Assembly: GCA_963707635.1 (NCBI GenBank)
Contig: OY970173.1
Coordinates: 1,472,001-1,536,000 of the forward strand
Source: Candidatus Latescibacterota bacterium
GTDB lineage: Bacteria > Krumholzibacteriota > Krumholzibacteriia > WVZY01 > JAKEHA01
DNA length: 64,000 bases
Direction: 5' to 3'
Position numbers and translations under genes: made by a program. The notes beneath the pieces are model-generated. The model did no database searches. It was not told where the DNA came from and saw only the letters and a program-made list of their open reading frames with translations. Position 1 is the stretch's first letter; every line of letters starts with the position of its first letter. Below, piece after piece: positions 13,938 through 56,996 of the stretch.

Positions 13938-13978
13938 TTGTGTTATGGGCCCCTTGGCCTAGAAAGGTCGATGTTCGC

Positions 13979-16560
<2,582 letters not shown>

Positions 16561-16564
<4 letters not shown>

Positions 16565-16590
16565 CGCGGCGCATGGCGTTGAGGTATAAT
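16561..16590 (+). promoter_or_regulatory. sigma70 promoter of C25 protease gene 1
   Basis: TTGACG, 18 bp, TATAAT; about 200-nt leader to GTG 16800. Confidence 0.75.
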
Positions 16591-16799: not shown

Positions 16800-19700
16800 G
16801 TGCGCATCACCACGTGTCGCCTGCGCCTCGCCTGTTCTGTGCTCGCATTGTCCGCCTTGTTCTTGCCCCGCGGCGCGCGCGGCGGGGAGATGTCCTACGT
16901 CCTCGAGACGCCGGCCGCGTCGATCCAGCTCGAGCGTGACGCCGTCGCCGATCGCGCGGTGGCGAGCGACCCGCAGTTCTATTACGTGGCCGAGGCCGGG
17001 TTGCCGGCGCTCCCGTACCGCGTGATCAGCCTGCTGCTCCCGCCGGGCGAAGCCGTCGACCGGTTCGAGATCGTCTCCGGTCCGCCGACGGTGATCGCGT
17101 CGTCGGTGCGACTGGCCGTCGCGCCGCCCGCGGAGGGTCCGGACGGCTTGCCCGCGAGTACCTCGACGGCCGCGGTTTGGAACGAGACGGCGTATCCCTC
17201 GGAGGGCGCGGTCTACCTGGGTACGGGATATCTGCACGGTTGCGCGATCGCGAGTTTTGCGGTGTACCCGGTTTCGATCGCGGCGGGAACGCTGACGGTC
17301 AACGAGCGGGTGGAATTGCGCGTCACCACGCGCGGCGACGACCCGACCCGCCGCGTCGCCCGGCGCTTGCGTTATCGCGAAGGATTCGAGGAGACGCTGC
17401 ACCGGCGCCTCGAGGGGCTGGTGGTCAACACCGACGAAATGTCGGCGTACGCGGCGACGGCCACGCGCGTCCCGGAAGCTTCCGGTGGATTCAACCCGAC
17501 GTCACTTCCGGCCCTCGAAGGCAGCGGCGTCGACTACGTGATCATCACCAACGATTCCCTCGCGGCCGCGTTCCAGATCCTGGCGGACTGGAAGACGGCG
17601 AAGGGCGTTCGCACCGTCGTTCGCACCACCGAATGGATCCAGGCCAACTACCGCAACGGGGTCGACCCGGCCGAGACCATCCGCACCTTCATTCTCGACG
17701 CGTATCAGAAGTGGGGGATCACGTACGCGCTGCTGGGCGGCGACGCGGAGCAGGTACCGGTGCGGCTCGGCGCGTCGAAGTATCTGGGCACGAAGGATCT
17801 TCCCGCCGACATGTACTTCGGGTGTCTGGACGGCGACTGGAACGCCGACCACGACAAGCTCTTCGGTGAGGGCGGTCCCACCGACCAGGCCGACCTCTAC
17901 CAGGAGGTGTACACCGGGCGCCTGCCGGCGGTGAGCGTGGCCACCGCGAGTATCATGATCAACAAGATCATGAGCTACGAAACGCCGGCCGACCCGTCCT
18001 ACACCGGAACCGCGCTGCTGCTCGCCGAGGTGCTGTTTCCGACCGATTGGGACGGAAGCGCGCCCATTACCCAGGACGGAGCCGCCATCGCGGAGTTTGC
18101 GTACGCCCTGGCCCTGGACGATCCGGCGCTCACGGTCTCGCGCATGTACGAGAACAATATGCCGTACAACGTCGCGCCGGAGACGAGGGCCTCCACGCTT
18201 GCCGCCCTCAACGCCGGCGTCGACCAGGTCAATCACATCGGCCACGGTTTTCGGTTCAACATGTCGGTCGGCGACGGCAGCGTGGTGAACGCCGACGCCG
18301 ATGTGCTCACCAACACCGACCGCTATTCCAACATGTATCTGCTCAACTGCACCGTCGTCGCCTACACCTACTTCTGCCTGGGCGAGCATTTTCTGCTCAG
18401 CCCCGCCGGCGGAGCCGTGTCCGTCATCGGCGCCAACGAGAGCGCGTACCCGCTGATATCGCAGCCGTACATGAACGAGTACTACGACCTCCTGATCAAC
18501 GACGATGTCGTGCACATCGGCGAGGCGTTCGCGCGCTCGCGCGAGCCCCGCACACCGATTGCCTCAAACGGGGACAATGCCGACCTGTGGACGCATTACA
18601 TCTACACCATCCTGGCGGACCCGGAGATGCCGCTGTGGACCGCGCCGGTGCAGCCGCTGGTCGTGTCGCACCCAACGCTCATGCAACGGGGCACCACCAA
18701 CGTGACCGTCCACGTGAACGACGCAGGCGGTCCGGTCGCGGGTGCAACGGTGTGTTTGTCGAAGGGAAGCGAGAGCTACGGGGTAGGCACCACCGACGCG
18801 AACGGCAACGTGGCCCTCAAGACGACGGCGGAATCCGCAGGCAGTGTTCGCGTCGTCGCGACCGCTCTCAACCGCTCGCGGTATGAAGGGTCGATTTATG
18901 TGCTGCCTTCGATTCCCGCGTACGTGTCCTACGTCGGCCTGGACGCGGACGATGATGCAGTCGGCGCGACCAGCGGCAACGGCGACGGCGTGATCGATGC
19001 CGGCGAAGTGATCGAGTTCATCACAGAGGTCGGCAACACCGGGAACGCCGACGCGTCCGGCGTGACGCTCACGCTGCGTTCGAGCACGAGCGGCGTTCTG
19101 GTCGAAGACAGCACCGCCCTGGCGGGGACCGTGGCGGCGGGCGACACCTCGAGCGCGCTCGATTCGTTCCGTGTCCGCTTTGCGCCCGGGATCGCAGATG
19201 AGACGCCCGCCGCCTTCACCCTGGTGGTTAACGCGGACGACGTGCCGGGGTGGACAGGCTCCTTCAAGAAACTGGTGCACGCGCCCGCGATCGAGTTCGA
19301 CGTGCTGCGCATCGACGACGCTACGACCGGAAACGGCGACGGCCTCGTCCAGGCGGGCGAGAATGTGCGCGTCTACTACACGATTCGCAACTTCGGCACC
19401 GGGGCCGCGTACGGACTTGCCGCGACCCTCACGGATCTCGAGGGCGCGTTCACGATCACGAACGGCGCGTCCGGGTACGCGAGCATGACGACGGCGGGAG
19501 CGGCGGAAAATGCGACCGGGTTCGCCCTGAGCGAGAGCAGCGTGGCGACGGAGCACGATCTGCGCCTGGCAGTGACGGACGCCCACGGCAATGCCTGGGA
19601 GAAGGTATTCGAGTTGCGTCCGCCGCCGGCGCCGGTGAACCTGACGTTCAACCCGAGTGTCGGGCCGACCCGGCTGCAGCTGGCCTGGGACGCTCCGCCG

Positions 19701-21758
19701 GGCTCGACCGACGTGAATCGGTATCGCGCCTACCGGTCGCTGACGGCGGGGGGACCCTACACGGTGGCGACGGTGGACCCGGTACGGCACACGACCTTCC
19801 TCGACACCGGCCTGCAGCCCACGACCCGCTACTACTACCGCGTCAGCGCGGTGGACGTGTCGGGCAACGAGAGCGCGCTGTCCGCCGAGTACAGCGGCAG
19901 CACCAACCCGGCGCAGGTCGTGGGGTGGCCGATCAAGATGAGCGTGGAGACGGTGAGTTCGCCGGTGATGGGGGATATCGACGGCGACCACGACTTCGAG
20001 CTCATCCAGGGCGACGGCAAGCTGTACGCGTGGCACCACAACGGAGTGGAGCTGCGCGACGCCGACGCGAACGCGCAGACCTGGGGACTCTTCAGCACGC
20101 TCGGGAATTCGTTCGTCTCGCACCCCGCGCTGGCCGAGATCGACGCCGTCAACGGTCTCGACATCCTGGCGGCGTCGCGCGACACCAGGGAGGTGTTCGC
20201 GTTCAACTATACCGGCAACGTGATCGCCGGGTGGCCGCGGCCGGTTGAGAACGCCATCCGTGCGGGCCTGGTGGCGGGTGACATCAACGGGGACGGTCAG
20301 AAGGAAGTAATCGCCATCGACGAGAAGGGCGTGCTCTACGTGTGGAGGGCCAACGGCGCCGAGTATCGCAACGGCGACAACAACGCCGCCACCCAGGGGA
20401 TATTCCGCAAGTTCGGCGGGTGTGTCTACCAGTACACGTGTCCCGCCATCGGGAACTTCGACGCCGACGGCCTCAACGAGATCGTCGTGGGCACGCAAGG
20501 CGATTCCGTGTTCGTTCTCAACGAAAACGGCACCCTCGTGCCGGGGTGGCCGAAGGCGTTCAGCTCCGACATCTCCGGCAGCATCGCGCTGGGCGACATC
20601 GACGGCAACGGCGACCTCGAAATGGTGGTGTGCGAATACGGCGGCAACGTGTGGGCGCTCAATCACGACGGGACCACAATGTGGATGCAGTGGTTTCCGA
20701 ATCAGCTCACCTTCGGACCGTCCCCGGCGCTGGGGGACCTCGATGGCGACGGAAAACTCGAGGTGGTCGTTCCGAGCAAGAACCGCAACCTTTACGCGAT
20801 CCGGTACAATGGCGGCTATCTCCCCGGGTGGCCGGTCGTGTATACGAGCCAGCTCTGGACGGAGTCGTCGCCGGTGATCGCGGATATCAACAACGACGGT
20901 TCGCTCGACGTCGTGCTCGGCGACGAGACCCGTTTCATCAACGGCTGGGACGCCGCCGGCCAACCGCTGGCCGGATTCCCGCTCGCGACTGGCGACGCGG
21001 TGCGCGCCACGCCGATGATCGCGGACCTCGACAAAGACGGCGACGTCGAAGTGATCGCCGCCGGGTGGGACAAGACCGTCTATGTCTGGGATTTCCCGGC
21101 GATGTTCAACCCGCTGATGGCGCCGTGGTCGAAGTTCCACGCCAATCTCTACAACGATGGTAACATTCACACGCCGGTGCCGACGCCGGTGCGCGCGGTC
21201 TCGTTCAATTTCACGCGGCGGGATGCGGGAATGGAACTGGTGTGGGCGGTGCCCGCAGAGGCGGGCGGGGAGTTCACGGTGAGGCGGGCGGAAGTGGTGG
21301 GCGGAGAGACGGGGGGATTCGCGCTGGTGGCGGCGGGGGTGGGGACCGGTGTGGACGGGATGGTGCGGGTGGTGGACCGGGGCGTGGAGATGGGGTCGCG
21401 CTACGTGTATCACCTGGAGAACACGGGGGGGACGTTGATCCACGAGACGGCGGGGTTGTACGTGCCGGTGACGCGGGCGGTGCTGGGTCAGAACTACCCG
21501 AACCCGTTCAACCCGGTGACAAAGATCGAGTACTGGGTGCCGGAGGGATCGGGCAAGACGCCGGTGAGCCTGGTGATCTACGATGTGCGGGGGGCGCGGG
21601 TGCGGACGGTGGTGAACGAGGGGCAGGCGGCGGGCCGGTACGTGGTGGAGTGGGACGGGCGGACGGAGGGCGGCGCGCCGGCCGGATCGGGCGTATACTT
21701 CTACAAGCTTCAGACGCCCGGTTTTTCGGATGCCCGCAAGATGGTGCTCCTGAAGTGA
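16800..21758 (+). CDS. Secreted C25 (gingipain-family) cysteine peptidase with propeptide, Ig-like, FN3, FG-GAP repeats and FlgD/T9SS-like C-terminal domain (copy 1)
   Basis: GGAGG plus GTG 16800; signal peptide; GLPALPY propeptide; YALLGGD, DMYFGCLDG and GRLP; catalytic HIGHG and LNC; many DxDGDG repeats; tail QNYPNPFNP...WDGR...SGVYFY...KMVLLK. Confidence 0.88.
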   Translation: MRITTCRLRLACSVLALSALFLPRGARGGEMSYVLETPAASIQLERDAVADRAVASDPQFYYVAEAGLPALPYRVISLLLPPGEAVDRFEIVSGPPTVIASSVRLAVAPPAEGPDGLPASTSTAAVWNETAYPSEGAVYLGTGYLHGCAIASFAVYPVSIAAGTLTVNERVELRVTTRGDDPTRRVARRLRYREGFEETLHRRLEGLVVNTDEMSAYAATATRVPEASGGFNPTSLPALEGSGVDYVIITNDSLAAAFQILADWKTAKGVRTVVRTTEWIQANYRNGVDPAETIRTFILDAYQKWGITYALLGGDAEQVPVRLGASKYLGTKDLPADMYFGCLDGDWNADHDKLFGEGGPTDQADLYQEVYTGRLPAVSVATASIMINKIMSYETPADPSYTGTALLLAEVLFPTDWDGSAPITQDGAAIAEFAYALALDDPALTVSRMYENNMPYNVAPETRASTLAALNAGVDQVNHIGHGFRFNMSVGDGSVVNADADVLTNTDRYSNMYLLNCTVVAYTYFCLGEHFLLSPAGGAVSVIGANESAYPLISQPYMNEYYDLLINDDVVHIGEAFARSREPRTPIASNGDNADLWTHYIYTILADPEMPLWTAPVQPLVVSHPTLMQRGTTNVTVHVNDAGGPVAGATVCLSKGSESYGVGTTDANGNVALKTTAESAGSVRVVATALNRSRYEGSIYVLPSIPAYVSYVGLDADDDAVGATSGNGDGVIDAGEVIEFITEVGNTGNADASGVTLTLRSSTSGVLVEDSTALAGTVAAGDTSSALDSFRVRFAPGIADETPAAFTLVVNADDVPGWTGSFKKLVHAPAIEFDVLRIDDATTGNGDGLVQAGENVRVYYTIRNFGTGAAYGLAATLTDLEGAFTITNGASGYASMTTAGAAENATGFALSESSVATEHDLRLAVTDAHGNAWEKVFELRPPPAPVNLTFNPSVGPTRLQLAWDAPPGSTDVNRYRAYRSLTAGGPYTVATVDPVRHTTFLDTGLQPTTRYYYRVSAVDVSGNESALSAEYSGSTNPAQVVGWPIKMSVETVSSPVMGDIDGDHDFELIQGDGKLYAWHHNGVELRDADANAQTWGLFSTLGNSFVSHPALAEIDAVNGLDILAASRDTREVFAFNYTGNVIAGWPRPVENAIRAGLVAGDINGDGQKEVIAIDEKGVLYVWRANGAEYRNGDNNAATQGIFRKFGGCVYQYTCPAIGNFDADGLNEIVVGTQGDSVFVLNENGTLVPGWPKAFSSDISGSIALGDIDGNGDLEMVVCEYGGNVWALNHDGTTMWMQWFPNQLTFGPSPALGDLDGDGKLEVVVPSKNRNLYAIRYNGGYLPGWPVVYTSQLWTESSPVIADINNDGSLDVVLGDETRFINGWDAAGQPLAGFPLATGDAVRATPMIADLDKDGDVEVIAAGWDKTVYVWDFPAMFNPLMAPWSKFHANLYNDGNIHTPVPTPVRAVSFNFTRRDAGMELVWAVPAEAGGEFTVRRAEVVGGETGGFALVAAGVGTGVDGMVRVVDRGVEMGSRYVYHLENTGGTLIHETAGLYVPVTRAVLGQNYPNPFNPVTKIEYWVPEGSGKTPVSLVIYDVRGARVRTVVNEGQAAGRYVVEWDGRTEGGAPAGSGVYFYKLQTPGFSDARKMVLLK
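21198..21662 (+). repeat. C-terminal cassette repeat, copy A
   Basis: Aligns without gaps to 26190..26654 (offset 4992), about 16 mismatches counted by eye. Confidence 0.92.
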
Positions 21759-21791
21759 CACGCCCCTGTATACAAACAGAGGAGACGAAGT

Positions 21792-24700
21792 ATGTGGCTG
21801 GGTCGGGATAATAGCGTTCGGGTGCTGGTGCCGGTGTTCTTGGCGGCGATCGTTTCCTCGGGGGGTGCGGCGACGCTGTCGCACACCGTCATCCTCTCGA
21901 GCGAACGCGTTCGACTGTCGCCCGGCCCGGGTGGACTGAGCGTGTCGGTCGACGACCGTGCGTACACGACGCTTGCGGATCCAGGACTGCCGGCGCTCCC
22001 GTTTCGCGTGGTGAGCTTCGTGCTGCCTCAGGGGGAAGACGTCGGCGGCTTTCGGGCCGTCGAGTCCGGCCGGCGCGTGATCTCCGCCGGGGCGGAGCTG
22101 GCCGTGGCCGGCCCGGCGCGCAGCGAGGACGGCGGCGAAGGCGTCGGCGCCGCCATGGCGTCGCGAGCCGGCGGGCTGTATCCGTCGGAGCGCGCTCGCC
22201 TGCTCGGGGTGGGCCGGCTGCACGGCTACACCATCGCGAGCTTCGCGGTATTCCCACTCCAGGTCGAAGATACGGAACTGACGGCGTCGGATCGGATCAC
22301 GCTCGAAGTGGAGACGGTGCCGTCGACCCGCCCGGCGGTCACGTTGCAGCGCGCCCGCGCCGCGGTCCGCCAGCGCGCGCGCGCCGAACTGGCGAGTCTG
22401 GTAGTCAATCCCGCCGACGCGGATGCCTACCTGTTCGCGGAACCCGTCGTGCCGAAGCCGCAAGGCGGGTTCAGCCCGACGTCGTTTCCGTCGCTGGAGG
22501 GGAGCGCGGTGGACTACGTGATCGTCACGCCGGACTCACTCGCCGCGGCGTACCAGGCCCTCGCGGACTTCAAGACCCGCAAGGGCGTGCCCACCGTCGT
22601 TCGCACGGTTGAATGGATCCAGGCCAACTACCGCAACGGTTCCGACCTGCAGGAGACGATCCGCAACTTCGTGATCGACGCCTACCAGAAGTGGGGCATC
22701 ACCTACCTTCTCCTCGGCGGCGACACGAGCGAGGTTCCGGTTCGGTTCGCGTACAGCGGCTTTTACGACGGCGGTCGTTTTCTGCCCGTCGACATGTACT
22801 TCGGCTGCCTCGACGGTGACTGGAACGACGACCACGACGAGGTCTTCGGTGAGGCGGCACCTTACGACAACCCCGACCTCTACGCGGAGGTCTACGTCGG
22901 CCGGATGCCGAGTTCGTCGGTTGCCGAAGTGAACATGCTGATCGGAAAAGTGATCGCTTACGAGACGCCCCTCGACATGACCCTCGGCCAGAAGGTCCTG
23001 CTGCTCGGTGAGATCCTCTTTCCGACGAACTGGACGCCTCCCCAGGTGATCACGCTCAACGGGCCCGATCTCATCGAACCCATTTACAACAATGAAATGC
23101 TCCCGGTGGCCGGACTGAACGCGCTGCGCATGTACGAGACCGAAGAGTTGTACCCGGGCGCGGTGGACGAGAACCGCGCGGCGGTGATCGCCCAGCTCAA
23201 TGCCGGCTACAACCACGTGGTTCACATCGGCCACGGGTACCGCTTCAACATGTCGGTGGGCGACGTGAGCATCGTCAACGCCGACGCGGACGCGCTCACC
23301 AACGGAAACCGCCTCTCGTGCCTGTATTTCCTGAATTGTACGGGTGCCGCCTACAACTACTACTGCCTGGCCGAGCACTACCTGCGCAACCCGAACGGCG
23401 GCGCCGTTTCGGTGGTCGGGGCCAACGAAAGCGCGTTTCCGAACGCGTCCACCGCCTACATGAACGAGTACTACCACCGTGTGTTCACCAGCGGGGTGAA
23501 GCACATCGGGGAAGCGTTTGCGCGCTCGAGGCTGCCGCGGACGGTGCTGGCGGAACTCGGCGACAACGTCGACCTGTGGACGCACTACATCTACACCCTG
23601 CTCAGCGACCCCGAACTTTCCCTGTGGACCGGCCCCGTGACCACGCTGAGCGTGAACCACCCGGCGAGCGTGTCGAAGGGGACCCATTCGATTCTGGTGA
23701 CCGTGACGAGCGGCGGGAACCCGGTCGATTCCGCGACGGTGTGCCTGTCGAAGGCGGACGAGGACTACGAGGTGGGGGTCACGAACGGGGCGGGCCAGGT
23801 GACGCTGTCGTTCCGCGCGGAAACGACGGGCAACATCGACGTCGTGGTCACCGGGCCCAACCACGCCCGCCACGAAAGCACGATCAGCGTGGGCGGGACG
23901 GGCGCCTATGTGGCCATCAGCTCGATGACCATCGACGACGACGGCGCGGGAGGGACGAGCGGGAACGGCAACGGGGTGATCGATGCGGGAGAGACGGTGG
24001 ACCTCGCGATCACGCTCAAGAATACCGGGACCGCGGCGACCAACAACGTGACCGCGACCCTGCGCAGCACCGACGCCGGGGTGACGCTCGTCGACAGCAC
24101 GGCGGGGGTGGGCGTCATCGCCGCGGCCGGGACCGCGCTGGCCACGGGTGGGGTGCGCGTGACGTTCTCGTCCTCGCTCGGGGACGCCCACGCCGTGCCC
24201 TTCACGCTCGTGATCAAGAACGACGGCACCCCGACCTGGACCGACGAGTTCAAGAAAGAGGCTCACCGTCCCGTGCTGGACCTGGTGAAGCTGCGGGTGG
24301 ACGACACTGGGACCGGCAACGGCAACGGCATCGTGGAGAACGGCGAGCAATTCAAGCTATTCTACAAGGTGAAGAACTTCGGGACGGGGGCGTACCCGGG
24401 AGGGAACGGCACCGTCAGCGACCTCGACACGGCGTTCACGCTGGTGGACCCGACCGACCCCTACCCCGTCATCGCGGCGCACGGGCAGGCGGAGAACACG
24501 GGCGGGTTCGTGCTGGTGGAAGCGGACGCGTCGGTGGAGCACCGGTTGCGGATATCGATCGTCGACCTGTACGGGCGGGCGTACGTGGACACGGTGGAGC
24601 TGCGGGTGCCGACGGCGCCGAGCGCGCTCGTGATCGACCCCAGCCTGGGACCGGACCGGTTGAAAGTGACGTGGACGGCGAGTCCGAGCCCGGACGTGGC

Positions 24701-26750
24701 ACACTACAATATTTACCGTTCGTTGAACGCGGGCGGTCCGTTCGTGCTCGCCAACGCGGACCCGGTTGCGCACGCCATTTTCGTCAACGTCGGCCTGGCG
24801 CCGAACACCGCCTACTATTTCAAGGCCAGCGCCCTCGACGAGGACGGCAACGAGAGCGGGATGTCCGCCGCCGCTTCCGGGAGCACCAACCCGAAACAGA
24901 TGTCCGGCTGGCCGATCGCGATGAAGGCGGAGACCAGCTCGTCACCGGCGGTGGGCGACATCGACGGCGACGGCGACAACGAGATCGTCGTGGGCGCCGA
25001 CCGCGTCTACGCGTGGCACGCGAATGGAATCGAAATGGTCGACGGCGACAACGATGCCCAGAGCTGGGGCGTGATTTCCCCGCTCGGCAGCTCGTTCGTG
25101 TCGAGCGTGGCGCTGGCCCGCATCGACCATGAGCCCGGGCTCGACATCGTGGCGGCGTCGCGCGACTCGCGCGAGGTCTTCGTATTCAACTACCAGGGTG
25201 ATGTGCTGACGGGGTGGCCCCAGGAGGTGGAGAACACGCTGCGCGCGGGAATGGTGGTCGCCGACCTGGATGGAAACGGGCTCTTCGAAATCGTCGCGGT
25301 CGACGAGAAAGGTGTCATCTACGCCTGGAAGGCGGACGGCACCGAGTTCATCGACGGCGACGCGAACCCGGCGACGCCGGGCGTCTTCTATCGCATGCCC
25401 AACTGCACGTTCAACTACTCGACACCGGCGGCGGCCGACATCGACAACGACGGCAAGGACGAACTGATCGTGGGGTCGCAGGGTGATCTCGTTTACGTAT
25501 TCAACGAGAACGCGAGCATGTCCCCCGGCTGGCCGTTCGCGCTGGTTAGCGACATCGCGGGCAGCCCGGTGGTGGGCGACGTCGACGCGAACGGCGATCT
25601 CGAGATCGCTTTCAATGAGGCGGGCGGGTCGCTGTGGGTCCTCAACCACGACGCCACCACGCTGATGTATCAGTACTTCACCAACAACCCGGCGAACAAT
25701 TTCTTTTCGACCTCGCCGGCGCTCGGCAATATCACCGGCGACGCGAAGCTCGAGATCGTGGTGGCGAGGGCGAGCGGGAAGATCTACGCGATGTCCAGCA
25801 CCGGCGTGGTGCTGCCCGGCTGGCCGGTGAATTACTCGGTGACGACCTACAGCGAATCGTCGCCGATTATCGCCGACCTGGACGGCAACGGATCTCCGGA
25901 CATCGTTATGGGTGACGAAACCCAGTTCATCGATGCGTTCAATGTGAGCGGCCAGTCGATTGCGGGTTTTCCGTTGGCGACCAGCGATGCGATGCGCGGG
26001 GTTCCGACCGCGGCGGATGTGGACCAGGACGGGAGCGTGGATCTGGTGGCGGCGGGCTGGGACAAGAATGTCTACGCGTGGGACTTCACGGGGACATGGA
26101 ATCCGGCGAATGCGCCGTGGCCGCGCTTCCACGCCAACCTGCACAACAACGGACGCATGGGATTCGTGGTGCCCACGCCGGTGCACGGAGTCTCGTTCAA
26201 CGTCACGCGGCGGGATGCGGGAATGGAACTGGTGTGGGCGGTACCCACGGAAGCGGGCGGCGAGTTCACGGTGAGGCGGGCGGAAGTGGTGGGCGGAGAG
26301 ACGGGGGGATTCGCGCTGGTGACGGCGGGGGTGGGGATCGGTGTGGACGGGATGGTGCGGGTGGTGGACCGGGGTGTGGAGATGGGGTCGCGCTACGTGT
26401 ATCACCTGGAGAACACGGGGGGGACGTTGATCCACGAGACGGCGGGGTTGTACGTGCCGGTGACACGCGCGGTGCTGGGCCAGAACTACCCGAATCCGTT
26501 CAACCCGGTGACAAAGATCGAGTACTGGGTGCCGGAGGGATCGGGCAAGACGCCGGTGAGCCTGGTGATCTACGACGTGCGGGGGGCGCGGGTGCGGACG
26601 GTGGTGAACGAGGGGCAGGCGGCGGGCCGGTATGTGGTGGAGTGGGACGGGCGGGACGACCGGGGGACGCGGGCCGCCTCGGGGGTCTACTTCTACCGTA
26701 TGACGGCGTCCGGTTTCGCGGACGTCCGCAAGATGGTGTTGATGAAGTAG
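21792..26750 (+). CDS. C25 gingipain-family peptidase with FN3, FG-GAP and FlgD/T9SS-like CTD (copy 2)
   Basis: Same architecture as copy 1; HIGHG and FLNC; RBS GAGGAG. Confidence 0.88.
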   Translation: MWLGRDNSVRVLVPVFLAAIVSSGGAATLSHTVILSSERVRLSPGPGGLSVSVDDRAYTTLADPGLPALPFRVVSFVLPQGEDVGGFRAVESGRRVISAGAELAVAGPARSEDGGEGVGAAMASRAGGLYPSERARLLGVGRLHGYTIASFAVFPLQVEDTELTASDRITLEVETVPSTRPAVTLQRARAAVRQRARAELASLVVNPADADAYLFAEPVVPKPQGGFSPTSFPSLEGSAVDYVIVTPDSLAAAYQALADFKTRKGVPTVVRTVEWIQANYRNGSDLQETIRNFVIDAYQKWGITYLLLGGDTSEVPVRFAYSGFYDGGRFLPVDMYFGCLDGDWNDDHDEVFGEAAPYDNPDLYAEVYVGRMPSSSVAEVNMLIGKVIAYETPLDMTLGQKVLLLGEILFPTNWTPPQVITLNGPDLIEPIYNNEMLPVAGLNALRMYETEELYPGAVDENRAAVIAQLNAGYNHVVHIGHGYRFNMSVGDVSIVNADADALTNGNRLSCLYFLNCTGAAYNYYCLAEHYLRNPNGGAVSVVGANESAFPNASTAYMNEYYHRVFTSGVKHIGEAFARSRLPRTVLAELGDNVDLWTHYIYTLLSDPELSLWTGPVTTLSVNHPASVSKGTHSILVTVTSGGNPVDSATVCLSKADEDYEVGVTNGAGQVTLSFRAETTGNIDVVVTGPNHARHESTISVGGTGAYVAISSMTIDDDGAGGTSGNGNGVIDAGETVDLAITLKNTGTAATNNVTATLRSTDAGVTLVDSTAGVGVIAAAGTALATGGVRVTFSSSLGDAHAVPFTLVIKNDGTPTWTDEFKKEAHRPVLDLVKLRVDDTGTGNGNGIVENGEQFKLFYKVKNFGTGAYPGGNGTVSDLDTAFTLVDPTDPYPVIAAHGQAENTGGFVLVEADASVEHRLRISIVDLYGRAYVDTVELRVPTAPSALVIDPSLGPDRLKVTWTASPSPDVAHYNIYRSLNAGGPFVLANADPVAHAIFVNVGLAPNTAYYFKASALDEDGNESGMSAAASGSTNPKQMSGWPIAMKAETSSSPAVGDIDGDGDNEIVVGADRVYAWHANGIEMVDGDNDAQSWGVISPLGSSFVSSVALARIDHEPGLDIVAASRDSREVFVFNYQGDVLTGWPQEVENTLRAGMVVADLDGNGLFEIVAVDEKGVIYAWKADGTEFIDGDANPATPGVFYRMPNCTFNYSTPAAADIDNDGKDELIVGSQGDLVYVFNENASMSPGWPFALVSDIAGSPVVGDVDANGDLEIAFNEAGGSLWVLNHDATTLMYQYFTNNPANNFFSTSPALGNITGDAKLEIVVARASGKIYAMSSTGVVLPGWPVNYSVTTYSESSPIIADLDGNGSPDIVMGDETQFIDAFNVSGQSIAGFPLATSDAMRGVPTAADVDQDGSVDLVAAGWDKNVYAWDFTGTWNPANAPWPRFHANLHNNGRMGFVVPTPVHGVSFNVTRRDAGMELVWAVPTEAGGEFTVRRAEVVGGETGGFALVTAGVGIGVDGMVRVVDRGVEMGSRYVYHLENTGGTLIHETAGLYVPVTRAVLGQNYPNPFNPVTKIEYWVPEGSGKTPVSLVIYDVRGARVRTVVNEGQAAGRYVVEWDGRDDRGTRAASGVYFYRMTASGFADVRKMVLMK
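26190..26738 (+). repeat. C-terminal cassette repeat, copy B
   Basis: Matches copy A over 26190..26654 and copy C over 26248..26738. Confidence 0.92.
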
Positions 26751-26777
26751 TGGTTTGTGATGCGCGGGCGTCGGAGG

Positions 26778-26807
26778 TTGACTCCGCCGCACCGCGCGGG
26801 GTATACT
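26778..26807 (+). promoter_or_regulatory. sigma70 promoter of C25 protease gene 3
   Basis: TTGACT, 18 bp, TATACT; about 210-nt leader to ATG 27021. Confidence 0.7.
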
Positions 26808-27020
26808 CAATCCTCCTCGAATCGCAGGCACGACAACCGCGGGGGCTATAAGGCACATCGCGAACTGCTACCAACGACCGTTGTTTTTCTCTCCATAATC
26901 AGGCCAACGAAGACCTTGTCCGAGCGCCGGAGCGGCGTGCGCCGCCGGCACGGACCCGAACCATCGAGCGTTGATCGCCCGGCGCTTGCGCCGGCCGCAC
27001 GGGTTGCTACGGGAGGACTC

Positions 27021-30000
27021 ATGATCTCGCGACACACAGCCTGCTCTTTCATCCTCGGCGCGTCCCTGCTGGCCCTCGGCCTGTGTCCCGCGCCCGCGAG
27101 GGCCGCGAGTCTTTCGATCCGGGTATCGGTTCCGCGCGACCCGGTCAGCGTAAAAGCGTTACCCCAGGGCGACGTCATCCACGTTCCGGGGGCGGGCTGG
27201 GAGTCGCTGCAGGACCCGGGGCAGCCGGAGATCCCGTACCGCCTCGTGCGCGTGCTCCTTCCCCAGGGAGAAACGGTGGAGAGTTTCGCGGTGGCGTCGG
27301 CCGAGCCGCGACTGGTTCGTACCTACGTCCGCCCCGTGCTCGCGGGCCCGATTGAGGCGGACGACGGCGGCGCCGTCACGACACCGTCGTTGCTGGCGGG
27401 CGTGGCGGGGTCATCGTTCCCGCGGGAACGCGCCGTTCTCCTGGGTTCCGGGATCCGCCATGGCTACACGGTGGCGACCTTTGCCGTGTTTCCGCTCGAG
27501 ATTCGGGACAGTGCCCTCTACGCGTTCGACGAGCTCGAGTTGTCGATTCAAACCCGCGCGTCCACGATTGCACCCGCTGTGCGCCAGCGGTTTCGCGAGG
27601 GATTCCGCGCGCACGAGCGCGCGCGCGTCGCCGCCGAAGTCCTCAACCCCGAAATGCTGAACGCCTACACGTTCTCCGAGACGGTGGTGGCGAAGGCCCC
27701 CGGCGGGTTCAACGTGTCGGTGTTCCCTTCGCTCGAGGGCAGCGCGGTGGACTACGTGATCATCACGCCCGACGCGTTCGCCGCCACCATGCAGGCGCTG
27801 GCCGATTGGAAGACGCTGAAGGGTGTGCCGACGGTGGTCAGAACGACGGAGTGGATCGCCGCGAATTACCGCAACGGATCCGACCTCGCCGAGACCATCC
27901 GGAACTTCGTGATCCAGGCCTACGCGAAGTGGGGGACTACCTACGTGCTGCTCGCGGGAGACGTCGAGCAGGTGCCCGCGCGGCTCGCGTGGAGCGCCTA
28001 CTACGACGACGGTCGCTTATTCCCGGTCGACATGTACTACGGCTGCCTCGACGGTGATTGGAACGCGGACCACGACGCCGTCTTCGGCGAGTTCGGCACC
28101 GACGACGCGGACCTGATTGCGGAAGTGTACGTCGGCCGACTCCCGATGCGAACGACGACCGAAGCGAGCGTCATGATCGACAAGGTGATGGATTACGAGC
28201 GACCGGACTACGCGACCTACGCGAACAAGGTCCAGGTGCTGGCCGAGGTCCTGTTCCCGTCGAACTGGGAACCCAACGACGAGATCTCGCTCAACGGTGC
28301 CGACATCGCCGAATTCGTTCGCACTCAGTGGCTGAATGACCCTGCGCTGAAGGTGACGCGCATGTACCAGACCGACAGCCTGTTCCCGGGCTCACTCCCG
28401 GAGACGCGGCAAGCCGCCCTCGATTCGATGGCCACGGGGTACAACCACGTGATCCACGTTGGGCACGGCTTCCGCTTCAATATGTCGGTGGGAGACGCGA
28501 GCATCGTCAACGCCGATGCCGACGCGCTGGCCAACACCGGGCGGCTCAGCAACCTGAACCTGCTCAACTGCACCGCCGTCGCCTACACCTACGAATGTCT
28601 GGCGGAGCATTTCCTGCGCAACCCCACGGGAGGGGCGGTGTCGGTCGTCGGCTCCAACGACAGCGCGTTTCCGACCGTGGCCGCGGACTACATGTACGAG
28701 TACTACCGGCTGCTCTTCAACCAGAACATCACCCACCTGGGCGAGACCTTCGCGCTCTCCCGCGAATCGCGCACCTCATTCGCGCTCGGCGGCGACAACA
28801 TCGACCGCTGGACGCACTTCGCCTACACCCTGCTCGGGGACCCCGAGATGCCGTTGTGGACGCGATCCGTGGCACCCCTCGCCGTTGCCAAGCCCGCCAG
28901 CGTCGGCAAGGGAAAGACCGCGATTCTGCTGACCGTGACCAGCGGAGGCAACCCGGTCGATTCGGCGCGGGTGTGCCTCTCGAAGGGGGACGAGGACTAC
29001 GGCGTTGGCACGACCAACGCCTCCGGCCAGGTCACTCTCAACTTTCGCGCCGAGACCACGGGCCTCATCGACGTGGTGGCGACCGGGTTGAATTACAAGC
29101 GCTACCAGGGGACGATCACCGTGGCTGGCACCGGCTCGTACCTGAGCATGCATTCGATGACCATCGACGACGACAACGTGTCCGGGACGAGCGGCAACGG
29201 CAACGGCGTGATCGAAGCGGGCGAGACCGTGGACTTTGCGATCAGGGTCAGAAACACGGGCACGGCGACGTCGCCCGGCACACTCAACATCCGCCTGCGC
29301 TGCCCTGCCGGCGGTGTCACCATTTCGGACAGCACCGCGAGCATTTCGGGCACCATCCCGGCCGGAGGCAATTCGCTGGCTACGGGCGGCGTGCGTGTCG
29401 TGTTCCCCTCCTCGCTGGCCGACGAGCAGGCAATTCGCTTCCTGTTGATCATACGGTCCAACACGACGGAGGTCTCACGGGATGATTTCAAGAAAGAGGT
29501 GCACCGGCCGAAGCTTGACCTGGTGAAGCTGCGAGTAGACGACACCGGAACGGGCAACGGCAACGGCATCGTGGAGGACGGCGAGCAGTTCAAGCTGTTC
29601 TACAAGGTGAAGAACTTCGGGACGGGAACCTACCCGGGCGGGAACGCCACCCTCACCGACCTGGACGCCGGGTTCACGCTGGTGGATCCCACCGATCCGT
29701 ACCCCACCATCCTGCCTCACCTGCAGGCGGAAAACACGACCGGGTTCGTGCTGGTGGAGCCGAACACGTCCACGGAGCACCGACTGCGGCTGTCGATCAT
29801 CGACACATACGGGCGCGCGTACGTGGACACGCTGGAGCTGCGGGCACCAGTGCCGCCCGCCGACCTGACGGTCGACCCGAGCCTCGGGCCGGACCGCCTG
29901 AAGCTGACCTGGCCGGTGAGCGCCAGCCCCGACGTCGCGCACTACAATATCTACCGTTCGCTCAACGCGGGCGGGCCGTTTGCGCTCGTCAACGGGGACC

Positions 30001-31980
30001 CGGTGGCGCACACTCTTTTCATCAACACGGGCTTGAGCTCCACCACCAAGTACTATTACAAGACGAGCACGCTCGACGCGTCGGGCAACGAGAGCGCTCT
30101 CTCCGCGCTTTACTCCGGAAGCACGAACCCGGCCCAGCTGGCCGGGTGGCCGATCAACATGCTCATGGAAACGACGTCGTCGCCGGCAGTGGGCGACATC
30201 GACGGCGATGGCGACAACGAGATCGTGGTCGGGGACAAGTACGTCTACGCCTGGCACGCCAACGGCATCGAGATGCAGGACGGAGACAACGACGCCCTGA
30301 CCTGGGGACCCATCAACAAGGACGGCGATTCGTTCATCTCGCACGTGACGTTGGCGCAAATCGATCAACTGCCCGGTCTCGACATCGTGGCCGCCTCGCG
30401 CAACACCCGACAGGTGTTCGTATTCGACCATACCGGCGCGGCGCTGCCCGGCTGGCCGCAGCCGGTCGAGAACATGATCCGTGCCGGCGTGGCGGTCGGC
30501 GACCTCGAAGGTGACGCGATCCCCGAGATCGTCGCGATCGATGAGCTGGGGGTCATCTACGTCTGGAGGCCCAACGGCACCGAACTCATCGACGGCGACT
30601 TCAACCCGGCGACCCAGGGCGTCTTCAAGCGTCTCACGGGCGCGACGTTCCACTATTCCACGCCCGCGCTTGCCGACATCGACAACGACGGCAGGGATGA
30701 GATCATCGTGGGCACGCAGGCGGACCAGCTGTACGCGTTCAACAAAGATGGAAGCAGCGTGCCCGGGTTCCCGGTCGCGCTCGGCTCGGACATCGCCGGC
30801 AGCGCTGCTGTGGGCGATGTTGACGGCGATGGTGATCTCGAGATCGTCGTCAACACGGCGGGCGGAACGGTGAAGGCGCTTCACCACACCGGTGCCACTC
30901 TGTGGAGCCGCAACTTCGTGAACGGGCTGTTCTTCGGCCCCTCTCCCGCGCTGGCGGACGTCGACGCCGACGGTAAGCTGGAGACGTTCATCCCGTCCGC
31001 CGACGGCAAGCTCTACGCGATCGACTTCACCGGCGCCGACCGGGCCGGTTTCCCGGTGACGTACTCGGCCGCGACCTACACCGAGTCATCGCCGATCGTC
31101 GCGGACATCGACGGCGACGGGCTGCACGACGTCGTGCTGGGCTCCGAGGAAAAGAACGTGTGGGCGTGGAATCGGAGCGGTGTGGCGCTTGACGGTTTCC
31201 CGCTGACAACCAGCGACGCGATGCGCGGGGTTCCGACGGCGGCGGACGTGGACCAGGACGGGAAGCGTGGACCTGGTGGGGGCGGGGTGGGACAAGAACG
31301 TCTATATTTGGGACTTTACGGGGACGTGGAATCCGGCGAACGCACCGTGGCCGCGCTTCCACGCCAACCTGCACAACAACGGGCGGCTCGGGTTCCTGAT
31401 GCCAGTGCCCGTGCAGGGAGCGTCGTTCGTCTTCGCGATTCACGATGAGGGGATGGAGCTGGCGTGGAAGGTTCCCGCGGAAGCGGGCGGGGAGTTCACG
31501 GTGAGGCGGGCGGAAGTGGTGGGCGGGGAGACGGGCGGATTCGCGCTGGTGACGGCGGGGGTGGGGATCGGCGTGGACGGGATGGTGCGGGTGGTGGACC
31601 GGGGCGTGGAGATGGGGTCGCGCTACGTGTACCACCTGGAGAACACGGGGGGGACGTTGATCCACGAGACGGCGGGGTTGTACGTGCCGGTGACACGCGC
31701 GGTGCTGGGCCAGAACTACCCGAATCCGTTCAACCCGGTGACAAAGATCGAGTACTGGGTGCCGGAGGGATCGGGCAAGACGCCGGTGAGCCTGGTGATC
31801 TACGACGTGCGGGGGGCGCGGGTGCGCACGGTGGTGAACGAGGGGCAGGCGGCGGGCCGCTACGTGGTGGAGTGGGACGGGCGGGACGACCGGGGGACGC
31901 GGGCCGCCTCGGGGGTCTATTTCTATCGCATGACGGCGTCCGGCTTCTCGGACGTCCGCAAGATGGTGCTCGTCAAGTAG
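27021..31980 (+). pseudogene. C25 gingipain-family peptidase (copy 3) with a +1 frameshift at 31263-31264
   Basis: GGAGG plus ATG 27021; HVGHG and LNC; GACGGGAAGCGTG versus GACGGGAGCGTG in copy 2, with the copy2-copy3 offset changing from 5229 to 5230; the C-terminus continues in ORF 31267..31980. Confidence 0.85.
31478..31968 (+). repeat. C-terminal cassette repeat, copy C
   Basis: Aligns without gaps to 26248..26738 (offset 5230); a further shared block at 25981..26150 and 31210..31380. Confidence 0.92.
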
Positions 31981-32188: not shown

Positions 32189-33337
32189 GTGCAGTTCATT
32201 CTGACCGAAGAGCAACGCCTGATCCAGCAGACGGCCCGGGAGTTCGCCGACAACGAGGTGGCCCCCGTCGCCGACCGGCACGACCGCGAGGGGAGGTTCC
32301 CGCTCGAGCTCGTCAAGAAGCTGGGGAAGATGGGATTCCTCGGCATGCTGATACCGGAAGCCTACGGCGGGACGGCGGCCGGGAATCTCTGCCTGGTCCT
32401 CGCGCTGGAGGAATTGAACCGGGTGTGCGCGTCGACCGGCGTGACCGTGTCGGTGCACAACTCGCTGGTGAGCGCCCCGATCGTCCATTGGGGCAGCGAA
32501 GAGATCAAGCGCAAGTATCTGCCCAGGCTCGCCACCGGCGAGCTGCTCAGCGCGTACGCGTTGAGCGAACCCGGTTCGGGCAGCGATGCCGCGGGCCTGG
32601 TCACCAGCGCGGTTCGTGACGGCAACGACTACGTCCTCAACGGGACGAAGAACTTCATTACCACCGGCGCGGAGGCCGACGTGGCCATCGTCATGGCCCG
32701 CACCGACCCCTCCCACAAGACGCGCGGGATCACCGCCTTCGTGCTCGAGCGCGACATGAAGGGGTACGTAATCGGAAAGAAGGAAGACAAGCTCGGACTG
32801 CGGGCGTCGAGCACGGTGCAGCTCGTATTCGAGGACTTGCGCGTGCCGGCGAGCCAGATCCTTGGCGGGGAGGGCGTGGGGTTCAAGATCGCCATGCACA
32901 CGCTCGACGGGGGCCGCATCGGCATCGCGGCCCAGGCGGTGGGAATTGCGCAGGCCTGCCTCAACGCGTCGATCAAGTACGCCGAGGAGCGCGAGGCCTT
33001 CGAACAACCGATCGGCAAGTTCCAGGCGATCCAGTGGAAGCTCGCCAACATGGCGACGCGGATCGAGGCGGCTCGTTTTCTGGTGTACAACGCCGCCCGC
33101 CTCAAGGACGCGGGTCAGCCCCACGGCAAGGAGGCCGCGATGGCCAAGCTGTTCGCGTCCGAAACCGCCAACGACGCGGCGCGCGACGCGGTGCAGATCC
33201 ACGGGGGTGCGGGGTATCTGGAGGACTTTCCGGTGGAACGGCACTTCCGCGACGCGCGCATCACCGAGATCTACGAAGGCACGAGCGAGATCCAGCGGCT
33301 GGTGATCGCGCGACACTTGCTCAAGAACTTGAGCTGA
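32189..33337 (+). CDS. Acyl-CoA dehydrogenase (short/branched-chain, Bcd-like)
   Basis: ALSEPGSGSDA, NGTKNFIT, QIHGGAGY and IYEGTSEIQR; GTG start 32189. Confidence 0.95.
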   Translation: MQFILTEEQRLIQQTAREFADNEVAPVADRHDREGRFPLELVKKLGKMGFLGMLIPEAYGGTAAGNLCLVLALEELNRVCASTGVTVSVHNSLVSAPIVHWGSEEIKRKYLPRLATGELLSAYALSEPGSGSDAAGLVTSAVRDGNDYVLNGTKNFITTGAEADVAIVMARTDPSHKTRGITAFVLERDMKGYVIGKKEDKLGLRASSTVQLVFEDLRVPASQILGGEGVGFKIAMHTLDGGRIGIAAQAVGIAQACLNASIKYAEEREAFEQPIGKFQAIQWKLANMATRIEAARFLVYNAARLKDAGQPHGKEAAMAKLFASETANDAARDAVQIHGGAGYLEDFPVERHFRDARITEIYEGTSEIQRLVIARHLLKNLS

Positions 33338-33387
33338 CGGCCCCGGCCGTCCCTCAACCTGGAGACCGGTTTGCGAGGAGGTCTGGA

Positions 33388-34185
33388 TTGAAGATCGTGG
33401 TGCTGGTGAAGAGCGTTCCCGACACCGAGTCGAAGATCAAGATTGCGGCGGACGGGATGTCGATCGACGGGCAGGGGCTCAAGTACATCATGAACCCCTA
33501 CGACGAGTTCGCGGTCGAGGAGGCGCTGCGCATCAAGGAGCGCCTGAAGGACGACACCACCGTGCTGGTGGTCGGGATGGGGCCCGATCGCGTGGTCGAC
33601 GTGCTGCGCACCGCGCTGGCGATGGGCGCGGACGACGCCATCCACGTCGGCGACCCCGCGTTCGAGGGCGGGGACGCGCAGACCAACGCGCGCGTGCTGG
33701 CCGAAGTCGTGCGGCCGCTGGGAGCGGACCTGGTGCTGGGCGGAAAGCAGGGCATCGACACCGACTCCGCGCAGACCGGCGCGGCGCTGGCGGAATACCT
33801 GGACATGCCGCAGGCGCTCATCGTCAACGAGCTCACGCTGGCCGATGACCGCAAGAGTGTCACCGCCCGGCGCCGGGTGGAAGGCGGCGACGAAATCGTC
33901 GCCATGACACTCCCCGCCCTGGTCACAGCCGAAAAGGGCCTCAACGAGCCCCGCTACGCGTCGCTCCCTGGCATCATGAAAGCCAAGAAGAAGGAAATCC
34001 GCAAGGTGACGCTCGCCGATCTACCGCTCAAGCCCGAGCAAGTAGGGGCGGCCGGGTCGAAGAGCAAGGTGATCCGCTACCACAACCTCCCCGAACGTCC
34101 GGCGGTCAAGATGATCGCGGGCGACGCCGGCCAGCAGGCGAAAGAGCTGGCGCGGTTGCTGCGCGAAGAGGCCAAGGTCATCTAG
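33388..34185 (+). CDS. etfB: Electron transfer flavoprotein beta subunit
   Basis: KSVPD, NPYDEFAVEEAL, GKQGID and NEPRYASLPGIMKAKKK; TTG start after GAGGAGG. Confidence 0.95.
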   Translation: MKIVVLVKSVPDTESKIKIAADGMSIDGQGLKYIMNPYDEFAVEEALRIKERLKDDTTVLVVGMGPDRVVDVLRTALAMGADDAIHVGDPAFEGGDAQTNARVLAEVVRPLGADLVLGGKQGIDTDSAQTGAALAEYLDMPQALIVNELTLADDRKSVTARRRVEGGDEIVAMTLPALVTAEKGLNEPRYASLPGIMKAKKKEIRKVTLADLPLKPEQVGAAGSKSKVIRYHNLPERPAVKMIAGDAGQQAKELARLLREEAKVI

Positions 34186-34220
34186 GTCGCGAACCAAAAC
34201 GGAAGGGACACACGGCACCG

Positions 34221-35207
34221 ATGGCAAACGGAATTCTGGTAGTCGGCGAGGTGCGCGGTGGCGCGCTCAAGGGCATTACGAAGGAAATCGTCACGGCGGC
34301 GAACGCGCTCTCCCAGGCCGGGGGCGGTCCGGTCAGCCTTGCGCTCCTGGGTGACGAGGCGGCCGCGGCGGCGAATCAGGCCCGCGCGCTCCCCGTCGCC
34401 CGGGTGTTCGTGGCGAAGCACGCCGCGCTCGTCCAGTATTCATCGCAGGCCGCCGCCGTTGCACTCCAGGCGGTGCTGGTGGCAAGCGGTGCGAAGCTCG
34501 TCCTCTTCGGTGCCACCGCGATGGGCCGCGATCTCTCCGCCCGCGCGGCGGCGCGCTGCGATGCGTCGCTGTTCACCGACTGCACCGAGATCAGTCTCAC
34601 GGGAGGGAATCTGCGCGCGAGGCGGCCCGTGTACTCCGGCAAGGTATACGTCGAGCTCGAATCCACCGCCGCGATTCAGATGGCGTCGATTCGCCCCAAC
34701 GTGTTCCCCCCCGCGACCGGGTCCGGCTCCGCCGAGATGGTGGAGGTGCAGGCCACGATCGACGCCGCGAGCGTGCGCGGGCGGGTGAAGGAAGTGGTCC
34801 AGACCGCGGGCGGCTCCAAGGACCTCACCGAGTCGGAGATCATCGTGTCGGGAGGCCGCTCGCTCAAGAGCGCGGACAACTTCGCGATCCTCAAGGCGCT
34901 GGCCGATGTACTGGGCGCCACCGTGGGCGCGTCGCGCGCGGCGGTGGACGCTGGGTACGCCCCGCATTCGATGCAGGTCGGCCAGACCGGAAAAGTCGTC
35001 AACCCGAAGTTGTACATCGCGGTCGGGATCTCGGGCGCGATCCAGCACCTGGTGGGCATGCGGACATCGAAAGTGATCGTGGCGATCAACAAGGACGCCA
35101 ACGCGCCGATCTTTCAGAAGGCCGACTACGGCATCGCCGGCGATCTGTTCGAGATCGTTCCGAAGCTGACCGAAGAGTTCCGCGCGCTGCTCGGCACGCA
35201 CGCTTGA
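34221..35207 (+). CDS. etfA: Electron transfer flavoprotein alpha subunit
   Basis: GASRAAVDAG, QVGQTGK and GISGAIQHLVGM. Confidence 0.96.
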   Translation: MANGILVVGEVRGGALKGITKEIVTAANALSQAGGGPVSLALLGDEAAAAANQARALPVARVFVAKHAALVQYSSQAAAVALQAVLVASGAKLVLFGATAMGRDLSARAAARCDASLFTDCTEISLTGGNLRARRPVYSGKVYVELESTAAIQMASIRPNVFPPATGSGSAEMVEVQATIDAASVRGRVKEVVQTAGGSKDLTESEIIVSGGRSLKSADNFAILKALADVLGATVGASRAAVDAGYAPHSMQVGQTGKVVNPKLYIAVGISGAIQHLVGMRTSKVIVAINKDANAPIFQKADYGIAGDLFEIVPKLTEEFRALLGTHA

Positions 35208-43561: not shown

Positions 43562-43817
43562 TCCGGCGTCCTTCCTTCTACGGAAGACCGTGCATTTCAT
43601 GTTGGAAACCGGGCTGCCGGCCAGGCTCGTCAGTTCTGATGGAACGAGTGGTGGGATCACCCTAAAGAAACCACGGGGTGTGGCTGCCTGTCAAGCGATT
43701 TCACGGGGCTAACTGGTCCGAAGAGTTCGGGTTCCGGCGGCGGGCAGCGCCCGCGCCTTTCCGGCCCTGGCACTGGTGGGGTGGCACCTAAATGCGCTCC
43801 TCGTGTACCATTGCCTC

Positions 43818-51834: not shown

Positions 51835-54270
<2,436 letters not shown>

Positions 54271-56127: not shown

Positions 56128-56130
56128 GGT

Positions 56131-56976: not shown

Positions 56977-56996
56977 ACGAAAAGCGGCCGATGCGA

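Follow-up and report, generated by a model that had tools for sequence, protein, structure and literature searches.

A tandem triplet of predicted C25 peptidase zymogens with an eight-bladed propeller and a shared export-type tail in a Krumholzibacteriota genome

In a 64,000-nucleotide stretch of contig OY970173.1 (GenBank assembly GCA_963707635.1, Candidatus Latescibacterota bacterium), referred to below as the window, three long open reading frames (ORFs), g1, g2 and g3, lie in tandem on the + strand and encode colinear paralogs of peptidase family C25, to which the gingipains RgpB and Kgp of Porphyromonas gingivalis also belong. They represent a C25 subfamily of which no description was found, its domains being combined in a new way and its substrate pocket probably different, and the triplet with its shared tail is an ordinary tandem duplication accompanied by gene conversion of the tail. 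With a probability of roughly 0.55, the three genes are read here as secreted endopeptidases that act on outside protein and prefer a non-basic P1 residue. The host genome is a single contig of 3.2 Mb, 96% complete, with Ca. Krumholzibacteria as its closest named relatives, which supports the non-Bacteroidota host of the Fibrobacteres-Chlorobi-Bacteroidetes (FCB) type suggested in an earlier sequence-only reading of the window.

Gene g1 starts with GTG at 16800 and ends at 21758, g2 occupies 21792-26750 and g3 27021-31980; a Shine-Dalgarno-like GGAGG precedes the starts of g1 and g2, which were chosen accordingly. Each gene encodes a 1652-aa zymogen, g3 if a +1 frameshift is read through, and the pairwise identities of 55%, 55% and 64% bear out the three colinear paralogs of about 1650 aa that had been noticed before. 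The ORFs of g1 and g2 are intact, whereas that of g3 is broken in this assembly. Compared with g2, one surplus base was located in g3 near 31266 (31261..31266), so that ORF 27021-31448 terminates out of frame and the tail is read in a different frame, up to 31980. This is likely an assembly indel, because a 159-nt contig from run X1 covering 31143-31302 with one mismatch lacks the base (depth 4.2, single contig), g3 is intact in 6/6 other complete triplets, and further genes are split in the assembly, namely a PorU-like gene and 11/110 tail-bearing ORFs of at most 260 aa. That g3 is a true pseudogene is unlikely, the evidence to the contrary including one low-depth contig.

The domain order is signal peptide, prodomain, C25 catalytic domain, immunoglobulin superfamily (IgSF) domain, two immunoglobulin-like (Ig) domains, fibronectin type III (FN3) domain, propeller, pre-tail sandwich and type A-like tail. 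Peptidase_C25 (PF01364) matched all three genes with 186-199 bits against a cut-off of 23, spanning profile positions 1-374; in g2, the catalytic domain (aa 242-611, 199 bits) lies at 22515..23624 (+, as for all g2 domains below). The HIGHG/HVGHG and LNC motifs quoted in the sequence-only reading, as well as its Ig-loop and tail motifs, are present, and the intact His/Cys dyad was confirmed: residues 482/517 in g1 (codons at 18243 and 18348), 481/516 in g2 (23232 and 23337) and 482/517 in g3 (28464 and 28569) align with H211/C244 of RgpB in a profile alignment to 1cvr. The His is kept in 252/257 and the Cys in 248/256 aligned relatives, so protease activity appears to be under selection.

An N-terminal basic-hydrophobic-AxA pattern, judged by eye, points to a Sec-type signal peptide (g2 aa 1-26, 21792..21869), followed by a gingipain-type prodomain (aa 27 to ~235, 21870..22496). 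The propeptide claimed earlier was not recovered by the Pfam family Propeptide_C25 (PF08126), with no match at E≤0.01 in g1-g3, and was recovered by a profile match to the Kgp prodomain 5mun (E 4.9e-9), by Foldseek matches to 4ief_E and 5mun, and by structural comparison (Z 11.7 to 5mun). When a 68-row profile was compared with the PDB, the matches were RgpB (E 1e-29), Kgp (6e-23), the Kgp prodomain (5e-9) and PorU (9e-9). The model of g2 residues 27-703 (predicted local distance difference test, pLDDT, 95.7) gave Z 41.2 and a root mean square deviation (rmsd) of 2.5 Å over 405 residues against RgpB 1cvr, with the IgSF domain included, Z 38 against Kgp and Z 18.4 against PorU. The IgSF domain itself (aa 613-703, 23628..23900) resembles Peptidase_C25_C (PF03785), scores below that cut-off and falls within the RgpB and Kgp structural alignments. 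The earlier domain list lacked this domain and a pre-tail beta-sandwich of about 100 aa, and a fourth paralog outside the triplet had likewise gone unnoticed.

The C-terminal half was modeled from g2 residues 701-1652 (pLDDT 87.1, predicted template modeling score 0.64) as two Ig-like domains, FN3, a propeller, a low-confidence linker, a beta-sandwich and the tail. The two CARDB-like Ig domains (aa 704-938, 23901..24605) share a DD..GNGNG opening loop and are all-beta in the model; CARDB is found in 12-56% of the members among Atlas neighbours, which is a lead only. For the FN3 domain (PF00041; g2 aa 939-1033, 24606..24890), the earlier assignment stood in Pfam for g1 (33.5 bits, above cut-off), with g2 below cut-off (20.2) and g3 unlisted, and a purpose-built profile detected it in all three. 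FG-GAP_3 (PF13517) and FG-GAP (PF01839) were above cut-off in all three genes, in agreement with the propeller proposed before. Eight repeats were counted in the sequence, and the region (aa 1034-1455, 24891..26156) is assigned as an eight-bladed FG-GAP/VCBS beta-propeller, with support from Foldseek and Atlas. The top Foldseek match was the designed propeller Cake8 (template modeling score 0.91 by target, rmsd 2.6), followed at lower rank by PL11 lyases, BamB and YxaL, all of which we take to be eight-bladed. The pre-tail beta-sandwich (aa 1462-1560, 26175..26471) has no Pfam match and is missing from the fourth paralog.

The tail of g2 (26475..26747) ends in KMVLMK and was assigned as a C-terminal domain (CTD) of type A-like character for the secretion system of type IX (T9SS). 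The T9SS/FlgD-like tail of the sequence-only reading was upheld, as TIGR04183 scored 30.8, 31.9 (g2) and 33.4 bits in the three genes against a cut-off of 23, and FlgD_ig 37-46 bits (43 in g2); PF18962 stayed below its own cut-off in the three genes. The terminal Lys (K86, at least 90% of 61 rows) recalls the T9SS type A CTDs, in which a C-terminal Lys is near-invariant according to the available text of PMC10994853. No cleaved-adhesin (haemagglutinin) domain was matched by Pfam at E≤0.01 in g1-g3, and the idea that a propeller stands where RgpA and Kgp carry adhesin domains is supported.

The substrate pocket was mapped against the residues described for P. gingivalis. In RgpB, the P1 Arg is contacted by D163, G210, G212, Q282 and the W284 lid (PMC4357240, available text), and in Kgp the S1 residues include D516 and W513 (PMC6426963, available text). 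By profile alignment, W284 (the Trp lid, W513 in Kgp) corresponds to Pro550, which is found in 221/254 relatives, and Q282 to Ala548. Kgp D516 sits in an insertion, and its ungapped counterpart is Ser/Ala553 (201/254). The register of the helix N-cap and of the hydrophobic period would place RgpB D163 at Gly424 (238/257), where the model helix begins, and the gapped profile alignment leaves Asp426 as a second candidate. No conserved Arg/Lys was found at the junction of prodomain and catalytic domain, where the position of RgpB R229 falls in a conserved GGFxPxxxPSLEGS linker (35 rows), or at the prodomain loop tip equivalent to R126; both residues are processing sites of RgpB in the accessible part of PMC4357240. 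Because the residues lining the Arg/Lys pocket of gingipains appear, by register, not to be retained, a P1 preference other than Arg/Lys, that is, a non-basic one, is likely.

Differences between the three copies were sought around the active site. The residues after the catalytic Cys had been proposed as markers of divergent specificity, a suggestion that was largely rejected, as they vary within orthogroups and for the most part do not mark a paralog: the counts at position 518 are G5/V2/A2 for group 1, G8/A1 for group 2 and A6/S1 for group 3, and T occupies position 522 in 22/25. The lid loop 544-553 separates the paralogs more consistently, with 5 diagnostic sites in 10 and residues 548-551 reading AYPL, AFPN or AFPT. 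Paralog-diagnostic columns amounted to 29/377 in the catalytic domain, 37/422 in the propeller and 0/190 in the tail.

Triplication predates the diversification of the genus, and each copy belongs to an old orthogroup of its own. In a C25 tree of 35 proteins, the orthogroups comprise 9, 9 and 7 rows with supports of 100/100, 100/99 and 100/100, a grouping that a quickly built propeller tree also gave. Since these three old orthogroups recur in 7 complete triplets, the idea that the expansion is recent or confined to one strain was rejected. The gene order is 1-2-3 in six of these triplets and 1-3-2 in genome G002 (L031), as expected from unequal exchange via the shared tails. Most members of the genus carry four copies; in this genome, G000, the fourth paralog at G000:C1:2610582-2615438 (L002) has the same architecture without the pre-tail domain and is unconverted.

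In the body of the protein, orthologues from different genomes are closer to each other than paralogues within a genome. From about residue 1470 the pattern reverses, with identities of 0.75-0.84 within and 0.44-0.66 between genomes, and in the window residues 1490-1620 are 98-100% identical across copies. Gene conversion has made the final ~135 residues uniform within genomes. The converted tracts lie at 21252..21659 in g1 (aa ~1485-1620, 97% DNA identity to g2 and g3), 26244..26651 in g2 and 31474..31881 in g3 (all +), the latter two assigned from tail identity and the tail DNA tree. This tree clusters by genome for G000, G002, G012, G013 and G016, joins only copies 2 and 3 in G011, and shows little or no conversion in G003 and G014. 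In the approximately unbiased (AU) test, paralog tail clades 1 and 2 were rejected (p 1e-65 and 5e-71), whereas the paralog-3 tail clade, as a point on the other side, was not rejected (p 0.07) despite a drop of 968 in log likelihood.

Two other explanations for the identical tails were rejected. A polishing artefact is contradicted by the recurrence of the pattern with different tail sequences in G002, G012, G013 and G016. Selection alone does not fit four-fold degenerate sites that agree at 64/68 in the tail vs 35/78 in the catalytic domain and at 0.52 between genomes, although the G-rich tail lifts chance agreement at such sites to an estimated 0.7 or so. Converted tails are G-rich at coding-strand four-fold sites, with fractions of 0.83-0.84 here and 0.59-0.73 in G002, G012, G013 and G016, compared to 0.43-0.50 in the little-converted G003 and G014 and about 0.45 in the bodies (tail loci L031, L033, L034, L038). 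Amplified GC skew was also seen in certain other near-identical repeats of this genome. A second array of about five tail-bearing tandem paralogs without a Pfam body domain is located at G000:C1:692000-704300 (L109); three of its tails are 93-98% identical, again suggesting conversion, and the family is patchy (5/61 genomes).

The export machinery of the genome was searched next to its C25 complement of six genes: the triplet, the fourth paralog, a true PorU and a split PorU-like gene. The genes sprA, porV and porU, which the sequence-only reading had expected, are all present. SprA reached 492 bits and is above cut-off in 36/41 relatives; PorU reached 529.5 bits (NF033707 cut-off 420) and lies immediately 5' of a PorV-family gene; and seven PorV/PorQ-family genes are above cut-off. 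The same tail was found by the tail profile of this analysis in 110 ORFs, in 103 of them at the terminus. The expected porKLMN genes were not found, with no control genome scoring over cut-off either. GldM was matched in 0/41 and 0/61 genomes and GldN in 0/41, no control genome exceeding the cut-off in either search, so that divergent homologues may escape. GldL and PorP/SprF were likewise not found in this genome, again with no control genome over cut-off; GldK gave an FGE-sulfatase-type match only (97 bits vs a cut-off of 350), and PorZ only a match below cut-off. The export system is thus at most a motor-less T9SS.

No T9SS or motor genes were seen beside the C25 locus or beside sprA. The latter gene (2087 aa, L107:8967-19001) points away from lptF/lptG, and an M28 peptidase gene comes after it; no motor-like genes adjoin it. 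At L001:3594-14626 (-), porU-porV is followed by an NHL-repeat protein and then by a 1130-aa protein that has no Pfam or NCBIfam match at the thresholds used, weakly matches part of SprA and has counterparts in ORFs of ~1140 aa in relatives. The PorU-like C25 gene at L003:8495-12590 (-) lies in two overlapping frames, with Propeptide_C25 in the first and the catalytic part in the second, and is probably split by another assembly frameshift. A cluster of genes for TonB, two ExbD-like proteins, an ExbB/TolQ-like protein, a tetratricopeptide repeat protein and a substrate-binding protein occupies 54461-60880 of the window, adjoined by a sodium-translocating pyrophosphatase gene at 51835-54408, and is a possible candidate for an energiser module.

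Counterparts of the g2 catalytic domain reach E≤1e-60 in 146/151 genomes of the phylum (121/125 of high quality), often as one copy of ~1650-1680 aa per genome and up to 9 copies (G089). Among relatives of at least 1450 aa, the Ig pair, propeller and tail occur together in 109/113 members of one set and in 64/69 of the 50%-identity representatives. Taxon names were looked up for 30 representatives: Eisenbacteria appears in two clusters, WOR-3 in two more, and the others carry no taxon. The triplet is bounded upstream by clpB (13940..16564, +; TIGR03346 over cut-off), which adjoins the C25 gene in 17/42 loci, and downstream by genes for an acyl-CoA dehydrogenase (acad), etfB and etfA (32189..35207, +), the acyl-CoA dehydrogenase being present in 17/42 loci. 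This neighbourhood is shared across families f1, f2, f5 and f8. Because single-copy genes occupy the same clpB-acad-etf locus in genomes of other families, the triplet is an in-place expansion of an ancestral gene.

From these data, the following course may be proposed for the triplet proteins. Sec would cleave the signal peptide, and the type A-like tail would be bound by a PorV barrel in SprA, with PorU releasing the protein or attaching it to the surface, as in Bacteroidota; in Flavobacterium johnsoniae, type A tails bind PorV loops within SprA, from which the cargo is extracted by the motor, needed for this step (PMC10994853, available text). The prodomain would hold the His/Cys site latent until its removal, as in RgpB, and the Ig-Ig-FN3 arm would carry a propeller that captures polymeric substrate, as the adhesin domains of RgpA and Kgp do. 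Like the sequence-only reading, we infer that binding and degrading protein substrates is the function of the array. A single ancestral gene located between clpB and acad-etfBA underwent triplication before the genus diversified, and gene conversion has repeatedly overwritten the functionally interchangeable tail. Because the catalytic and propeller domains stayed distinct, the copies may differ in subsite or ligand preferences.

Several observations weigh against feeding endopeptidases with a non-basic pocket. The pocket mapping is based on a sequence profile and helix register, without superposed coordinates, and Asp/Asn423 (D134 and N96 of 257), one residue off the D163 candidate, could act as the S1 acid. 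The lid-loop enrichment has p 0.0005 as a pre-chosen window and 0.05 as the best of all windows, and the fixed differences in this loop can be neutral history. Among the conserved neighbours in the clusters examined, a peptide transporter did not appear, and near-universal retention, often as a single copy in an unchanging position, agrees with a housekeeping role no less than with feeding.

Such a role is the strongest competitor, which we consider possible and clearly less probable than feeding: a core surface-maturation protease that trims or activates the cell's own exported proteins or remodels the envelope. It would account for the 146/151 and 121/125 genomes with their frequent single copy, for the clpB/acad-etf neighbourhood common to f1, f2, f5 and f8, and for the strongly conserved active-site surroundings (E407 in 243/259, besides P550 and G424). 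The ~100 tail-bearing proteins per genome are possible clients, and one other tail-bearing family is patchy (5/61). Universality is nevertheless notable without being unique to the C25 protein, because a second control family is found in 60/61 genomes, and with controls at 5/61 and 60/61 it was not accepted as decisive proof of housekeeping. The locus is moreover unlinked to T9SS genes, PorU and a PorU2-like protein have genes of their own, and numbers of 3-5 copies, with 9 in G089, would be typical of feeding enzymes. The second control family is that of the window gene 41090-43660 (-), whose 856-aa product matches a T9SS-type tail weakly and no Pfam family; relatives with 38-72% identity occur in 60/61 genomes of the phylum, often in several copies, and it is predicted to be another uncharacterised core protein that the phylum exports.

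The maturation idea may be taken further, to a combination that we hold rather doubtful. The proteins would form a separate deep C25 clade and a core surface enzyme of Krumholzibacteriota (also of Eisenbacteria and WOR-3), with a non-basic S1 pocket of Gly floor and Pro lid and the propeller as exosite, maturing the cell's own ~100 tail proteins after export via a GldLM-less T9SS pore, with the clients split between the three copies. If so, part of the sediment "gingipain" gene counts would be neither Arg-specific nor nutritional.

True gingipain-like enzymes, cutting after Arg/Lys with Asp423 or Asp426 replacing RgpB Asp163, are unlikely. RgpB and Kgp are the closest solved structures, and the gapped profile alignment also permits D163 to align with Asp426, which is Asp in 126/257 relatives and in 14/16 members of groups 2 and 3; Asp423 is common across the phylum, and the residue before the prodomain-loop "SED" is Arg in certain group 2 members. 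Neither Asp is invariant, however, as g1 has Ala at 426 and Asn prevails at 423 in groups 2 and 3; Pro stands in place of the Trp lid, and junction and loop tip hold no conserved Arg/Lys where RgpB has R229 and R126.

PorU-like transpeptidases, or proteins that are mainly adhesins with proteolysis secondary, are very improbable: PorU is also a C25 enzyme, the triplet has weak NF033707 matches (74-95 bits), and most of the protein consists of propeller and Ig stalk, but these scores are far under the cut-off of 420, the real PorU is encoded next to porV, RgpB/Kgp are much the closer structural match (Z 41, against 18 for PorU), and the prodomain is of the Rgp/Kgp type, so that identity with PorU was rejected.

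The triplet proteins can be compared with several known systems. RgpB (1cvr, 4ief) and Kgp (4rbm, 6i9a, 5mun) of P. gingivalis (MEROPS C25, clan CD) share with the triplet a prodomain, a caspase-like catalytic domain and an IgSF domain, a dyad in register and a T9SS type A domain, at an identity of ~20%. They differ in the S1 residues (D163/Q282/W284 of RgpB and W513/D516 of Kgp), which by register do not appear conserved in the triplet, and in the Arg/Lys auto-processing sites, which are not conserved either. In place of the cleaved-adhesin domains of RgpA and Kgp, the triplet has two CARDB-like Ig domains, FN3 and an eight-bladed FG-GAP propeller, and its host is free-living and non-Bacteroidota. 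The propeller has the same fold as other eight-bladed FG-GAP-like propellers (PL11 rhamnogalacturonan lyases YesW/YesX, BamB, YxaL) at 13-20% identity, the relation being known here by fold only. PorU, the T9SS sortase (NF033707, 6za2), is alike in C25 fold and T9SS tail and differs in the scores given above, the true PorU being encoded elsewhere. The Bacteroidota type A/SprA-PorV system (TIGR04183, TIGR04189, NF033709) is matched by the tail, SprA, PorU and the seven PorV/PorQ-family genes, and differs in that GldL, GldM, GldN and PorP/SprF were not found and GldK and PorZ are below cut-off. In P. gingivalis, domain rearrangement and gene conversion occur among surface-protein genes (PMC5266723, available text); the likeness lies in recombination between surface protease/adhesin genes, which there diversifies strains, whereas in the triplet it evens the export tail while enzyme and propeller stay distinct.

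In estuarine sediment metagenomes, no exported peptidase genes are commoner than those of C25, for which Arg at P1 is assumed (PMC6752024, available text), and C25 peptidases of uncultured sediment heterotrophs have been read as protein-degrading (PMC6752024, PMC8359207). The available portions of these papers on "gingipain-like" C25 peptidases give annotation counts and do not describe the triplet architecture. Several relatives are already named "C25 family cysteine peptidase" by NCBI. No published description of this architecture or of a T9SS in Krumholzibacteriota was found in a literature search of partial coverage that excluded supplements; the architecture, whose novelty the sequence-only reading had left conditional, is widespread and not, by that search, characterised.

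C25 enzymology rests on RgpB, Kgp and PorU of P. gingivalis, and this conserved clade offers a test of the assumption of Arg specificity (PMC6752024, available text). With an intact dyad and a different pocket, it may stand for a P1 class that is new to clan CD. The proteins are also a well-defined cargo for asking how SprA-PorV-PorU works where the Gld motor is undetectable, and the triplet shows that the tail is interchangeable and that enzyme and propeller are not.

Minor features were recorded around the locus. Sigma70-like promoter matches lie 5' of g1 (16561..16590, +, 11/12) and between g2 and g3 (26778..26807, +, 10/12); they are consensus matches only, with 3 found vs 1.5 ± 1.2 in shuffles. 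Upstream of clpB, a 544-aa ORF at 12175-13809 (+) has a C-terminal Peptidase_M10-like zinc motif and lies beside the C25 locus in 16/42 loci, and is predicted to be a second peptidase of this neighbourhood. At the end of the window, from 62001 to 64000, GC falls to 0.57 and long ORFs are few.

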